Positions 1,245 through 26,594 of a DNA stretch of 64,000 nucleotides are shown one piece after another. The stretch's first letter is position 1. Each line of letters begins with the position of its first letter. The stretch is from a virus. The stretch lies in the IMG/VR virus record IMGVR_UViG_3300031760_000051, positions 2,963 to 66,962 of that record; one strand, 5' to 3'. The notes beneath the pieces were generated by a model. That model was not told where the DNA came from, did not search any database, and saw only the letters and a program-made list of their open reading frames with translations. The position numbers were made by a program, and so were the translations under genes.

Positions 1245-1316
1245 GAAGAGAGATAGTAATCTAAACTAATTTAGATCTCGAATACCTCGAAAACGGGGCA
1301 TCTTTTATCTCTCCTC
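1245..1316 (-). ncRNA. 72-nt three-way-junction RNA or structured leader starting at promoter motif copy 1
   Basis: 11-bp closing stem GAGGAGAGAUA/UAUCUCUCUUC enclosing two hairpins. Confidence 0.5.
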
Positions 1317-1341
1317 ATAAAAGGGCATGATTTTTACGCGA
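1316..1341 (-). promoter_or_regulatory. Phage promoter-like motif copy 1
   Basis: TCGCGTAAAAATCATGCCCTTTTATG. Confidence 0.8.
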
Positions 1342-1364
1342 ATTGTTTTTGTGTCGAGAATTAA

Positions 1365-1395
1365 GAAGAGGGCCTGTAAATTACAAGACCTCTTC
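1365..1395 (-). terminator. Cassette-end hairpin (terminator or processing stem)
   Basis: Inverted repeat GAAGAG...CTCTTC; mismatches become G.U pairs on the minus strand. Confidence 0.6.
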
Positions 1396-1402
1396 GGTTT
1401 GG

Positions 1403-1645
1403 TTACTTTTTGAATTTGTTTGCTAGTTCGGTAAATAAACTACCAAGCAATATAACTGGTAACATCAGTATAACCAATATTGTTGTTATTATTCCCTGTC
1501 CTAAAGGCATAGCGTTAATGGTATCAAATATATCTTTATATTTGTTCATTACTCGCTTATTGTCTCTAAGACCAAATAATAATGCAATCATAATGGTTAC
1601 AGATGCTACAATACTACTTATGTAGATTTTTATAGCCTGTTTCAT
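1403..1645 (-). CDS. Small membrane protein (two hydrophobic segments)
   Basis: Start revised to MKQAIK after AAGGAGG; cassette gene. Confidence 0.7.
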   Translation of the reverse strand: MKQAIKIYISSIVASVTIMIALLFGLRDNKRVMNKYKDIFDTINAMPLGQGIITTILVILMLPVILLGSLFTELANKFKK

Positions 1646-1662
1646 ATAAATAACCTCCTTTC

Positions 1663-1688
1663 CATTATAGCATATGTTTTTGAGACGA
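1663..1688 (-). promoter_or_regulatory. Phage promoter-like motif copy 2
   Basis: TCGTCTCAAAAACATATGCTATAATG. Confidence 0.75.
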
Positions 1689-1708
1689 TATAACGCTATA
1701 AAAATAAA

Positions 1709-1733
1709 AGCCCCTGTAAACTGCACAAGGGCT
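1709..1733 (-). terminator. Cassette-end hairpin
   Basis: AGCCCUUGU...ACAGGGGCU followed by UUUAUUUUU on the minus strand. Confidence 0.65.
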
Positions 1734-1742
1734 AAAGTAAAC

Positions 1743-1877
1743 TTAAGTAATATTATTCATGATTTCTTTTGCAAGTATCTCCACCATACCTACAATAATC
1801 GCAGCTGGTACGAAGACCAGTGATCTTATCGTAAGCATGATGACTCTACACATAAATTTAAAATCGTGTTCTGTCAT
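1743..1877 (-). CDS. 44-aa hydrophobic peptide (not in ORF track)
   Basis: MTEHDFKFMCRVIMLTIRSLVFVPAAIIVGMVEILAKEIMNNIT after GGAGGTG. Confidence 0.7.
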   Translation of the reverse strand: MTEHDFKFMCRVIMLTIRSLVFVPAAIIVGMVEILAKEIMNNIT

Positions 1878-1889
1878 TACGTTCACCTC

Positions 1890-1915
1890 CACTAAAGGAG
1901 ATGAATACTACACGA
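1890..1915 (-). promoter_or_regulatory. Phage promoter-like motif copy 3
   Basis: TCGTGTAGTATTCATCTCCTTTAGTG then GAGG. Confidence 0.75.
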
Positions 1916-2090
1916 CAGGATCTTTAACAGTTACAAGAATATCATCGTAGTAACTCCATACTTGTACCTTTCCATTCTTGTAATGTATTTCTATTGCCTC
2001 ACTATTATCGAGCATTAGGTAATGAGATACATCTTTCGATAGCTCAGTATGTTTCTCGGTAAACAGAAGCATAATATCTATTTGTTCCAT
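1908..2090 (-). CDS. Hypothetical protein
   Basis: ORF with GGGAGG SD. Confidence 0.65.
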   Translation of the reverse strand: MEQIDIMLLFTEKHTELSKDVSHYLMLDNSEAIEIHYKNGKVQVWSYYDDILVTVKDPVV

Positions 2091-2122
2091 CTCGTATACC
2101 TCCCTAAATCATAGTACAGATA

Positions 2123-2150
2123 TTCCGTACCACAGTACGGGACTTTTTTT
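2123..2150 (+). terminator. Plus-strand intrinsic terminator-like hairpin
   Basis: TCCGTAC-CACA-GTACGGG followed by a T7 run on the + strand. Confidence 0.5.
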
Positions 2151-2230
2151 GTGATATATACTGTGTAAAAACCCTTACGTGAAATATTTTTTATTAATAT
2201 ATAAATTAACGCAAAGGGGGCGATTATGTT

Positions 2231-2800
2231 TTAAGGTACCAATAGTAATACTTCATCCTCTCTATCCTCATCGACAATATTCTTATCTAACCTGTCAAGA
2301 ACAAAGTCACATATTCTTTTTAGTTTAGAATAGGTAAGACCTCTAAAATCCCATTCATCGATCCATTGTCTCAACTTATTCTCACTAATATGAGTGCCCC
2401 AAGAAATATACTCATAACTCATAAGTCCATTAACAATAAACCACTCAATAGATCTCGTAACCACTTCTGCGGACAATAACTTACTTGGCGAATATCTACT
2501 CTTATCGTGGTAGAAGCATATTGTATGATCAACCATATAATTATAAAGTCTATCAAGGTCCTTATAATTAATGTTCCTCTTTCCGTCAATCCAGCGCTTA
2601 ACCTCGAAAGTTCTAAGTCCAATATCCTTGCAGTAAAGATCAACATTACCAATGTCCACAATAATATCACGGTAGTCATCCTCATCCACTAGTTTAAGAT
2701 TATACATCCTATTTTCATACTCTTCACTCTCGTAGAACTCTTTGCTAATAGAACCTAACGAGTACTTCCAAGTTCTAGGATAATACTTCCGACTCATCAT
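2231..2800 (-). CDS. Putative DNA-binding protein with two XRE/Cro-like HTH repeats
   Basis: Repeated pattern VKRWIDG..NYKDLDRL and LRQWID..TYSKLKRI. Confidence 0.5.
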   Translation of the reverse strand: MMSRKYYPRTWKYSLGSISKEFYESEEYENRMYNLKLVDEDDYRDIIVDIGNVDLYCKDIGLRTFEVKRWIDGKRNINYKDLDRLYNYMVDHTICFYHDKSRYSPSKLLSAEVVTRSIEWFIVNGLMSYEYISWGTHISENKLRQWIDEWDFRGLTYSKLKRICDFVLDRLDKNIVDEDREDEVLLLVP

Positions 2801-25226: not shown

Positions 25227-25228
25227 GA

Positions 25229-25270
25229 AAGTTAAAAGGACCTGAATATAAATCCAAGTCCTTTACGCTT
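25229..25270 (-). terminator. Cassette-end hairpin
   Basis: AAAGGACUUGGAU-UUAU-AUUCAGGUCCUUU. Confidence 0.7.
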
Positions 25271-25534
25271 TTAGCTTTCGCTTAAGGATTCGCCTCCGTT
25301 TAAAGTTTCTTCTAATAACATTTTTCTAAGTTCGTTTTCTGTATTAATCTGTTCTTTAAGTTGTTCTTCCAATTTTCTATTTTCGTACAGCATACTTTCC
25401 ATATGTGGCTTATAAAGTTTAACACTGTCGTAGTGTCCTTCATCATAACCAATATGGTACATAGCTGCGCCTATAATGAATAAAGTGATTACCCACCAAA
25501 TTACAGTAACTACAAATTTAACTTTCTTTGTCAT
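25271..25534 (-). CDS. Membrane-anchored coiled-coil protein
   Basis: N-terminal TM; cassette gene. Confidence 0.7.
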   Translation of the reverse strand: MTKKVKFVVTVIWWVITLFIIGAAMYHIGYDEGHYDSVKLYKPHMESMLYENRKLEEQLKEQINTENELRKMLLEETLNGGESLSES

Positions 25535-25570
25535 AGTAATTCCTCCTTTTAAATAAGGGGTTTATCCTTC

Positions 25571-25596
25571 CATTAAAGAGAGTGAATTTTACGCGA
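25571..25596 (-). promoter_or_regulatory. Phage promoter-like motif copy 19
   Basis: TCGCGTAAAATTCACTCTCTTTAATG. Confidence 0.8.
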
Positions 25597-25608
25597 GAAA
25601 AAATAAAA

Positions 25609-25836
25609 AAGAAAAGTGACAGTCCGCCAACCTCAGATGACCCTTCCGTATTCCTCGTTGTTAACCCGTGTACGAGCTACCTTACATTACAGCCCTGTTT
25701 TAAGCTGCAGATCAATTCGCCTTTCGAATCATAATATACCGTATTGTTTAGTATATATGGTCGTACACCACATAGAGAATTTAAATATACGTTTTAACTA
25801 GTGGATCCCCATTTGAGGAGTCCACGTCCTTTTCTC
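25609..25836 (-). ncRNA. About 228-nt multi-hairpin non-coding RNA of unknown family
   Basis: Starts at motif copy 20; 5'/3' closing stem GAGAAAAG-GAC/GUC-A-CUUUUCUU followed by a U run; six or seven internal hairpins; no SD-led ORF. Confidence 0.65.
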
Positions 25837-25861
25837 ATGAGAGCGAGTGTTTTTTACGCGA
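25836..25861 (-). promoter_or_regulatory. Phage promoter-like motif copy 20
   Basis: TCGCGTAAAAAACACTCGCTCTCATG. Confidence 0.8.
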
Positions 25862-25881
25862 GTTTCGTACCAATAGAAAAA

Positions 25882-25914
25882 TCAAGAGCCCATGAATAAT
25901 ACACGGGTTCTTGA
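25882..25914 (-). terminator. Cassette-end hairpin
   Basis: UCAAGAACCCGUG...CAUGGGCUCUUGA then UUUUUCU. Confidence 0.65.
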
Positions 25915-25920
25915 AGTTGG

Positions 25921-26019
25921 TTAGTCTTCGTCTTTGTGCTTTATCCAATATTTAATATCGTCGCATAAAACGTAAATCATAGCTAACGGCCATAATGTTA
26001 CCCAAAATATAACTGCTAT
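25921..26019 (-). CDS. 32-aa single-TM peptide with apparent ATA start (or damaged start codon)
   Basis: GGAGGTG-TTTA-ATA; IAVIFWVTLWPLAMIYVLCDDIKYWIKHKDED; fills the cassette between motif and hairpin. Confidence 0.5.
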   Translation of the reverse strand: MAVIFWVTLWPLAMIYVLCDDIKYWIKHKDED

Positions 26020-26029
26020 TAAACACCTC

Positions 26030-26055
26030 CACTAAAGCGTATGATTTGAAAGCGA
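26030..26055 (-). promoter_or_regulatory. Phage promoter-like motif copy 21
   Basis: TCGCTTTCAAATCATACGCTTTAGTG then GAGG. Confidence 0.75.
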
Positions 26056-26103
26056 AAAGGCAGAGTGCCTGAATCTTTCGACTCAGGTCTTACCTCGCCT
26101 TTT
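26055..26103 (-). terminator. Cassette-end hairpin
   Basis: AAAAGGCGAGGU..CCUGAGUC-GAAA-GAUUCAGG.ACUCUGCCUUUU. Confidence 0.65.
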
Positions 26104-26107
26104 GCAA

Positions 26108-26512
26108 TTATTTCTTCTCAGCTATTCTGCCGAGCACTGAGCAGTTATTGCCTTCCTGCTTCAGTATATCTTTTAGTAATTTGTTTGTCTCCTTTGCCAG
26201 TTCGATCTGTTCAGATTCCTTTTTACTAAGTTCCATTAACTGTTCTTTGCAGTCAGCGATAGTCTTGTCTGTTTCAGCCATGTAGTCAAAGATAAGACTT
26301 GTGATCTCCTCACAAGAGTTCATCATTTTCTTAAGCTTCTTCATGAAGTAAACATTGTCTTCGTCATCTTCGTCAATGTTTTCCCTGATAAGTTTAGTTG
26401 TGAACTTCTTAAGCTGAGTCATAAGCTCTGTTGCCTTTTCCTTAAGCTGTTCAAGTACTGACTTTTCGTCTGCTACTGCCTTTTCAACTGTTCTGATTAC
26501 CTTTTCTTTCAT
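26108..26512 (-). CDS. Helical hypothetical protein, paralog family C
   Basis: Ends TNKLL...LGRIAEKK. Confidence 0.75.
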   Translation of the reverse strand: MKEKVIRTVEKAVADEKSVLEQLKEKATELMTQLKKFTTKLIRENIDEDDEDNVYFMKKLKKMMNSCEEITSLIFDYMAETDKTIADCKEQLMELSKKESEQIELAKETNKLLKDILKQEGNNCSVLGRIAEKK

Positions 26513-26568
26513 AATAAAGTCCTCCTAATAAAATTAAAAAGTTTCTAGGAGACAGCCACTTACTGTCT

Positions 26569-26594
26569 CATTATAGTACTTGAAAAATACGCTA
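26569..26594 (-). promoter_or_regulatory. Phage promoter-like motif copy 22 (overlaps upstream TAG stop)
   Basis: TAGCGTATTTTTCAAGTACTATAATG; hairpin GAGACAG-TAAGTGG-CTGTCTC starts at the last G. Confidence 0.8.

Follow-up and report, generated by a model that had tools for sequence, protein, structure and literature searches.

The IMG/VR virus record IMGVR_UViG_3300031760_000051 is a single phage contig of 66,962 bp, of which bases 2963-66962, a stretch of 64,000 nucleotides (nt), are called the window; positions refer to it unless they are given as genome positions. The minus strand encodes all called genes and carries all long reading frames. In transcriptional order, genes for packaging, head, tail and lysis (64000 to 26592) are followed by a region (26594 to 1316) in which 22 copies of a 26-bp motif are set among many small genes, three DUF6353 paralogues and genes for a 1,416-amino-acid (aa) primase-polymerase, an annealing protein and a helicase. 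Beyond this region come an endonuclease gene, an exonuclease gene and the gene of a 975-aa protein, which leaves the window at base 1 and lies mostly just outside it (genome 371-3298, minus strand). Our subject is the motif array and its relation to this 975-aa protein, a candidate RNA polymerase.

A fixed motif at gene boundaries in the early region

An earlier reading of the sequence (the original prediction) had placed 22 copies of a fixed 26-bp pattern on the minus strand at gene boundaries, had noticed none in the structural half and had proposed that they are promoters of a phage-specific RNA polymerase starting at the final G. A motif copy was present on the minus strand at all 22 sites. 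The 26-base pattern, written in IUPAC letters, matched exactly at 15 of the 22 (0.05 expected; largest count 1 in 100 shuffles) and with at most one mismatch at 20 (0.72 expected; largest count 4 in shuffles), and all matches of both kinds lay on the minus strand at these sites. To that extent the fixed pattern held; the remaining copies, 21967 and 23482, deviated from it by two mismatches; in the former, the TCA block seems to be displaced by one base.

A matrix built from the 22 copies and run over both strands of the whole 66,962-bp genome returned exactly those 22 sites above 12 bits, the weakest scoring 24.7 bits; each of 20 base shuffles yielded 0-2 sites, none scoring above 20.0. The scan is circular for its 22 training copies but not for the absence of further ones, and it found no copy on either strand of the structural half, as originally noted, or in the 2,962 bases outside the window. 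Placement at gene boundaries was likewise borne out: every copy lies between genes or reaches no further than the final few codons of the gene upstream, and the TAG that replaces TCG in two copies (5528 and 26569) serves as stop codon for genes 5551-5865 and 26592-27278, respectively.

The consensus of the 22 copies is tTTCGCGTAAAAWTCA-nnyy-CTtTAATGG-aag, with conserved blocks TCGC, TCA and CTnTAATGG. Numbered along the motif, CGCG occupies positions 2-5, (A/T)CA positions 12-14 and C-T-n-T-W-A-T positions 19-25, with a purine run at 26-30; the three blocks are about 10.5 bp apart and therefore lie on one face of the duplex. The 55 nt before the copies fold more stably than random windows of the early region (mean -12.7 vs -7.6 kcal/mol; Mann-Whitney p = 1e-4), and a hairpin with a T-run immediately precedes about a dozen copies. 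Because these hairpins stand just before the next predicted promoter, the region reads as a series of repeated promoter-gene-terminator cassettes.

A candidate two-barrel RNA polymerase behind the array

The 975-aa protein matched PHROG 4291 over residues 14-972 (E = 0, 1084 bits); the Pfam RdRP family gave a weak match below its cut-off (15.6 bits, residues 529-646), and a search of PDB chain sequences returned no match. The sequence SGADFDGDT stands at residue 538, and its DFDGD loop aligned with those of the homologues in FP_oengus, Correa and 1706. A C-terminal helix-turn-helix (HTH; residues 944-972) resembles sigma-70 region 4 (E 4e-9 to 1e-7). In a Foldseek search, the AlphaFold model built from 30 homologues (pLDDT 78.6, pTM 0.66) found QDE-1, the Neurospora RNAi polymerase, as its best match (E 3.5e-7), followed by P23-45 gp64 (8f72), P74-26 gp62 (8f5m), plant RDR2, Pol IV and the largest subunits of cellular RNA polymerases. 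By its PHROG 4291 match, DFDGD loop and fold matches, the phage encodes a two-barrel polymerase with a DxDGD metal loop, and we take the 975-aa protein as the candidate two-barrel RNA polymerase, with modelled HTH modules at both ends. Its identity to the proteins of FP_oengus, Arthrobacter phages and a human-gut phage record is 44-50%.

The motif accompanies the polymerase gene across related phages

The polymerase family comprises at least 8,000 protein clusters at 90% identity, and 250 deposited phage records contain homologues (Arthrobacter 95, Gordonia 55, Streptomyces 54, Lactococcus 13, and others). Scans of named phages started from the matrix of the present phage and were refined within each genome; they found 15 sense-strand copies in FP_oengus (host Faecalibacterium), 7 in Arthrobacter phage Correa and 12 in Lactococcus phage 1706, against 0-1 in shuffles. 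The Correa consensus is tTCGCGtaAAtTACAcGGGCTATAATg, and the TCGCGTAAA box is common to Correa, with its actinobacterial host, and the rumen-type phage. The closest deposited relative by polymerase identity, MT835495.1 (50.5%), has only 2 clear copies, both just before the polymerase operon, and some other signal may operate in its early region.

Family-wide scans used a matrix pooled from four phages. Across 82 IMG/VR polymerase loci (1.16 Mb), 215 sense and 7 antisense sites were found, with 9 in shuffles, and 75 of the 82 loci were positive. Upstream of the polymerase gene there were 213 sites in 582 kb (3.66 per 10 kb) and downstream of it 2 in 350 kb (0.06 per 10 kb); in 64 of 65 loci a copy stood 850-1355 nt before the polymerase gene, in front of the endonuclease-exonuclease-polymerase operon as it does in the present phage. 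A second, independent collection of 80 loci, taken from bacterial genomes and metagenome-assembled genomes and including prophages of Ruminococcus torques, Hungatella hathewayi, Cuneatibacter, Enterocloster and Blautia, gave 185 sense vs 6 antisense sites, 76 of 80 positive loci and the upstream copy in 72 of 73. Over 196 unique related sites the invariant positions were C2, G3, C4 and G5; A12, C13 and A14; C19 and T20; T22; A24; T25; and a purine at 26. In the scan of the full genome and related phages that had been named as a check, the motif therefore recurs with polymerase homologues, and it is oriented with the genes.

A signal that is kept across such different hosts and differs from the universal bacterial consensus calls for a phage-borne reader. 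The polymerase with its putative HTH modules is the only conserved candidate for that reader that can be named, here or by Koert et al. The proposal that a phage-encoded polymerase reads the motif is supported by the adjoining two-barrel candidate together with the co-occurrence of motif and gene, and a private promoter of such a polymerase is, by comparative evidence, a well-supported prediction. A recognition code was also sought by setting motif box variants against the HTH recognition helices of 86 polymerases and was rejected: the variants track clades, so that a code is inseparable from shared descent.

A predicted start at or next to the final G

The sequence makes it plausible that transcription initiates at the final G (position 26) or no more than 2 nt from it. 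Among the 196 related sites, T25 was present in 98% and position 26 was a purine in 100%; a pyrimidine/purine step is usual at the starts of two-barrel enzymes. Positions 26-30 were 91-100% purine in 152 sites with a gene start more than 22 nt away, in a test that is partly circular as the scanning matrix included positions 26-30; because the purine run persists far from genes, it is not merely a ribosome site. The core of the Shine-Dalgarno (SD) sequence never began before position 26 in 224 sites and piled up at 0 (20 sites) and +2 (25 sites). Start codons peaked at +17, with 60 sites at 13-19 nt past position 26 and 10 more, unchecked, at 7-12 nt.

In the present genome, the GGAGG that had been described at the final G was confirmed in nine copies, with the core 0-1 nt from the G (1890, 3858, 4475, 5528, 8788, 23482, 23986, 24285 and 26030), and the start codon lies 9-18 nt past the G in nine copies. 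A start 6-8 nt past the hexamer would therefore leave those nine mRNAs without a ribosome site. The companion claim, that a stem begins exactly at the final G in six copies, fared less well: five of the six pair from the G, 25836 with certain window lengths only, and when upstream bases are allowed the stem reaches past the G in four of the six (1316, 24364, 25836 and 20944). Only three strong hairpins begin at the final G in 50-nt folds of the present genome, and among 256 related sites stems at positions 25-27 were not in excess (16 vs about 12.5 expected). With no family-wide excess and four of six stems extending upstream, stems at the final G were dropped as evidence for +1.

Eight copies (1890, 3858, 4475, 5528, 8788, 12131, 24285 and 25571) carry TCAYCTYC(T) at motif positions 12-19, pairable with the following GGAGGTGA; this spacer resembles the 3' end of 16S rRNA. 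Over the 256 related sites, hairpins with a 5' arm from positions 15-19 were in excess (position 19: 31 vs 3.8 expected). Anti-SD-like pairing of 15-19 with 26-32 was nevertheless rejected: five registers showed no covariation, the single pair 17/29 being significant, and because the tracts do not covary the pairing is treated as compositional.

Contigs of one bovine-gut metatranscriptome run contained 12% of sampled words from this genome. Eleven contigs, of depth 2-7 and at least 99% match, lay on short early genes only (7500-27499), with DNA carry-over possible, and none fell in 12836-20172, the 7.3 kb that hold the DNA polymerase and its neighbours, a distribution compatible with the reading favoured below.

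Relation to known phage transcription systems

T7-class promoters are contiguous and about 25 bp long; an A/T-rich segment runs right up to the +1 G, and the initial transcript is rich in purines. The present motif shares this geometry, but a T7-type enzyme was not borne out: the candidate is two-barrel, and Pfam and PHROG scans of the genome's proteins found no T7-like right-hand polymerase.

The polymerase itself belongs to a family noticed before. The 1706-type enzyme was flagged as YonO-like in 2010, as a separate YonO-like family (Ruprich-Robert and Thuriaux, PMC2919709), and an HTH-flanked putative polymerase was reported in 2021 as a signature of an Actinobacteria/Firmicutes phage supercluster (Koert et al., bioRxiv 10.1101/842583). 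The 975-aa protein shares with that supercluster polymerase its family (PHROG 4291), the DFDGD loop, the N- and C-terminal HTHs and the position after endonuclease and exonuclease. In the accessible portions of both papers (10.1101/842583, PMC2919709) the enzyme is predicted only and neither a motif array nor its link to the enzyme is described; the word 'promoter' is absent from the text of Koert et al. No description of the motif as a promoter was found in the literature searched.

By its published description, YonO of the Bacillus prophage SPbeta is likewise a DNA-dependent RNA polymerase with two barrels in a single chain, and it too comes from a Firmicute phage. It transcribes late genes from one mapped start and its own promoter was left to be determined (Forrest et al. 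2017, PMC5467207), whereas here early units stand under the motif. Late promoters of the phiKZ non-virion RNA polymerase read T(-3)ATG(+1), with the start at the G (Sokolova et al. 2020, PMC7598289). This, too, is a two-barrel enzyme, and the TATG end recalls the motif (TTATG plus a purine in most relatives here, TAATG-G in the present phage), a likeness of four bases only; the phiKZ system differs in its multisubunit enzyme and in having no conserved upstream boxes. For P23-45 gp64/gp96, two motifs define private promoters, mapped by Cappable-seq (Chaban et al. 2024, PMC10770324). While gp64 and its P74-26 homologue rank high among the structural matches of our model, the P23-45 motifs are AT-rich and GC-rich and the virion enzyme is fused to the tape measure; in the present tape measure protein, a domain scan found nothing but a TMP_3 domain.

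Private promoters for phage polymerases are thus already known from T7, N4, phiKZ and P23-45. PHROG 4291-type polymerases have so far been computer-predicted only, with no promoter assigned, and the same gap exists for YonO. A motif of about 30 bp with a predicted start base makes the specificity of the enzyme and its need for a partner approachable in vitro, and with it annotators could mark the early transcription units of thousands of phages from gut and soil.

Which polymerase reads the motif

On the sequence comparisons above, we consider it fairly likely that the 22 sites are early or middle promoters read by the phage's own single-chain two-barrel RNA polymerase and not by the host sigma-A holoenzyme, a reading that builds on the observed motif, its distribution, the polymerase fold and the co-occurrence of the two, and in which we infer the identity of the reader, the start site and delivery by the virion. 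The HTH modules would bind the upstream blocks while the DNA is still duplex, melting would occur at the A/T-rich TWAT and RNA would begin at purine 26 or within 2 nt of it. Where a gene directly follows the motif, its GGAGG ribosome site would form the extreme 5' end of the mRNA, and most units would end in a hairpin just before the next promoter. The first polymerase molecules would probably, by analogy, be delivered with the virion.

Several observations weigh against this reading. The hexamer T20-n-T22-W-A24-T25 resembles a -10 box and is exactly TATAAT in Correa. Late genes lie directly downstream of the polymerase gene and lack the motif, and YonO, the only characterised single-chain relative, transcribes late and not early genes (PMC5467207). 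Conservation at the scored positions is partly ascertained because the family-wide matrix was built from four phages. None of 8 listed metatranscriptome contigs (11 in total) crosses a motif, and they are too sparse to show starts. In this phage and almost all its relatives the polymerase gene follows the last motif copy, and a source of the first enzyme is needed; the first enzyme therefore probably arrives with the virion, or something else primes the loop. The link to the virion comes from a single annotation, the depositor's label 'structural protein' for the 1706 homologue (EU081845.1 orf75) in the GenBank record, and a shared N-terminal packaging tag was rejected, the DUF7211 motif that opens two other proteins of the phage having no match in the polymerase N-terminus even at E = 1.

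A bolder form of the proposal, which we regard as possible but doubtful, is a complete transcription system independent of the host polymerase, in which an injected 110-kDa enzyme has its own HTHs, a T7-like start and portability. Its fused HTH modules, roughly one per motif block, would recognise promoters in double-stranded form without a sigma-like partner, and RNA would start directly after a 4-bp A/T melt site, as with T7 polymerase. Such T7-like start geometry, if true, would be new for an enzyme of the cellular-polymerase lineage, and with the motif kept from phages of Actinobacteria to those of Clostridia, the enzyme-promoter pair would, if the reading is true, be a portable orthogonal expression module for Gram-positive bacteria.

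The chief alternative, which we judge unlikely, is that the host RNA polymerase reads the motif as an early promoter with a -10-like TnTWAT and a G-rich discriminator, perhaps helped by a phage factor at the CGCG box, and that the phage polymerase makes the late block of about 37 kb as YonO does, late genes being transcribed by that enzyme as one operon (PMC5467207). Besides the likeness of the hexamer to TATAAT, exact in Correa, this would fit a polymerase gene that lies under the motif in 64/65 and 72/73 loci, as a host-made early gene might, and a late half without the motif, in keeping with the gene order. The hexamer departs from a host promoter at its second position, the base flipped out by sigma-70: among the 22 copies it is A in 7, C in 4, G in 1 and T in 10, and this A-11 equivalent is A in 37% of the 196 related sites. 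The motif has no -35 box at 16-18 bp. Sigma-70-like sites were not enriched in 18001-28000 (30 vs 24.0 +/- 5.3, one of the 30, at 24930-24902, overlapping a motif copy), around the polymerase operon (10 vs 10.6 +/- 4.0) or before late genes (2 vs 3.5 +/- 1.8). With the A-11 equivalent unconserved, the -35 box absent and the scanner finding no enrichment, a sigma-70 promoter was ruled unlikely, as the original prediction had argued. Also against host reading, the non-consensus CGCG and CA boxes are kept in phages of Arthrobacter, Lactococcus, Faecalibacterium and Lachnospiraceae, and if RNA began 6-8 nt past the hexamer, the SD would be lost from 9 of the 22 copies and at dozens of related sites. 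No small sigma, MotA/AsiA-like or HTH protein was recognised among 44 early and 33 late proteins, and with 6 further proteins the count of sigma or HTH families was 0 in 83 scanned; the 1706 homologue, by depositor annotation only, is labelled a virion protein.

Other promoter classes and non-promoter roles fit less well than reading by the phage polymerase. A T4 middle promoter failed at the -10 element, and no DNA-binding family was found in the 44 early proteins, a scan that very divergent adaptors could escape; an N4-type hairpin promoter failed in that positions 10-21 and 26-36 did not covary in five registers over 258 sites. It is quite improbable that the motif is an operator through which a phage regulator gates the cassettes, possibly the large protein itself, which would repress or activate through its HTH modules. 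Three blocks on one helical face are typical of HTH binding, and some relatives are temperate phages or prophages, in which many units have to be kept silent; set against this are the strict orientation (215 vs 7 and 185 vs 6), the fixed placement between terminator-like hairpin and ribosome site, the invariant T followed by a purine run and the lack of any other promoter-like signal in the gaps. We find it more improbable still that the motif acts in RNA, as a processing site or a translational operator whose pyrimidine tract at 15-19 pairs with the downstream GGAGG. TCAYCTYC before GGAGGTGA in eight copies and the excess of hairpins with a 5' arm at 15-19 (256 sites) would suit such a role, but none of five registers covaries, composition explains the pairing, the CGCG and CA blocks have no pairing partner in RNA and terminator-like hairpins lie directly upstream of many copies.

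Late genes and further features

A second promoter class for late genes was sought and rejected: no TGACG-type or other repeated motif was present in the late half and at the genome junction, and the coding strand before the late genes held no sigma-70-like site. At the genome ends (genome 1-60 and window 63470-64000), the polymerase operon and the first late gene are set apart by about 590 bases of non-coding sequence; this gap contained no recognisable promoter of either type, and a G/C hairpin lies within it, 20-40 nt from the genome end.

Residues 1 to about 49 of the polymerase (genome 3150-3298) are predicted to be disordered, yet G27, S32-P36 and G38-G40 are invariant in 30 homologues, and the stretch looks like a short targeting or cleavage signal. 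The 25-residue DUF7211 motif opens two otherwise unrelated minus-strand proteins, one in the late block (60425-61162, E 2e-7) and one at the late/early boundary (26592-27278, E 1e-12), the second of which additionally matches PHROGs named head morphogenesis or minor head protein. The DUF6353 paralogues of the early region lie on the minus strand at 18513-19430, 21132-22013 and 22174-23010; FP_oengus likewise has three.

Table 1. Motif copies and the genes of the polymerase operon, in window positions
Feature	Position	Strand	Remarks
Motif copy	1316..1341	-	Followed by a 72-nt structured leader (1245-1316, -25.3 kcal/mol), then the endonuclease-exonuclease-polymerase operon
Motif copy	1663..1688	-	SD begins 4 nt past final G
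Motif copy	1890..1915	-	GGAGG begins at final G
Motif copy	3858..3883	-	GGAGG begins at final G
Motif copy	4475..4500	-	SD begins 1 nt past final G
Motif copy, TAG variant	5528..5553	-	TAG is stop of gene 5551-5865
Motif copy	8788..8813	-	GGAGG begins at final G
Motif copy	12131..12156	-	39.1 bits, among top scores
Motif copy, 1 mismatch	12847..12872	-	Directly after primase-polymerase gene
Motif copy	20944..20969	-	Followed by 8-bp hairpin from the G, extendable 4 bp upstream
Motif copy, 2 mismatches	21967..21992	-	TCA block one base off
Motif copy	22155..22180	-	
Motif copy, 2 mismatches	23482..23507	-	CCG start, final A
Motif copy	23986..24011	-	SD begins at or next to final G
Motif copy	24285..24310	-	SD begins 1 nt past final G
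Motif copy, 1 mismatch	24364..24389	-	Followed by a 56-nt structured RNA (24309-24364, -17.9 kcal/mol) without open reading frame
Motif copy	24885..24910	-	Followed by 8-bp hairpin from the G
Motif copy	25201..25226	-	Terminator-like hairpin precedes
Motif copy	25571..25596	-	Top score, 39.8 bits
Motif copy, 1 mismatch	25836..25861	-	Long untranslated stretch downstream
Motif copy	26030..26055	-	Strong hairpin and T-run precede
Motif copy, TAG variant	26569..26594	-	First in transcription direction; TAG is stop of last late gene 26592-27278
Candidate RNA polymerase, first 112 codons of 975 aa	1..336	-	Whole gene is genome 371-3298
Endonuclease gene	899-1201	-	Between motif copy 1316 and polymerase gene
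Exonuclease gene	364-927	-	Between motif copy 1316 and polymerase gene

The structured RNAs that follow copies 1316 and 24364 pair from the final G and are candidate small RNAs or structured leaders.

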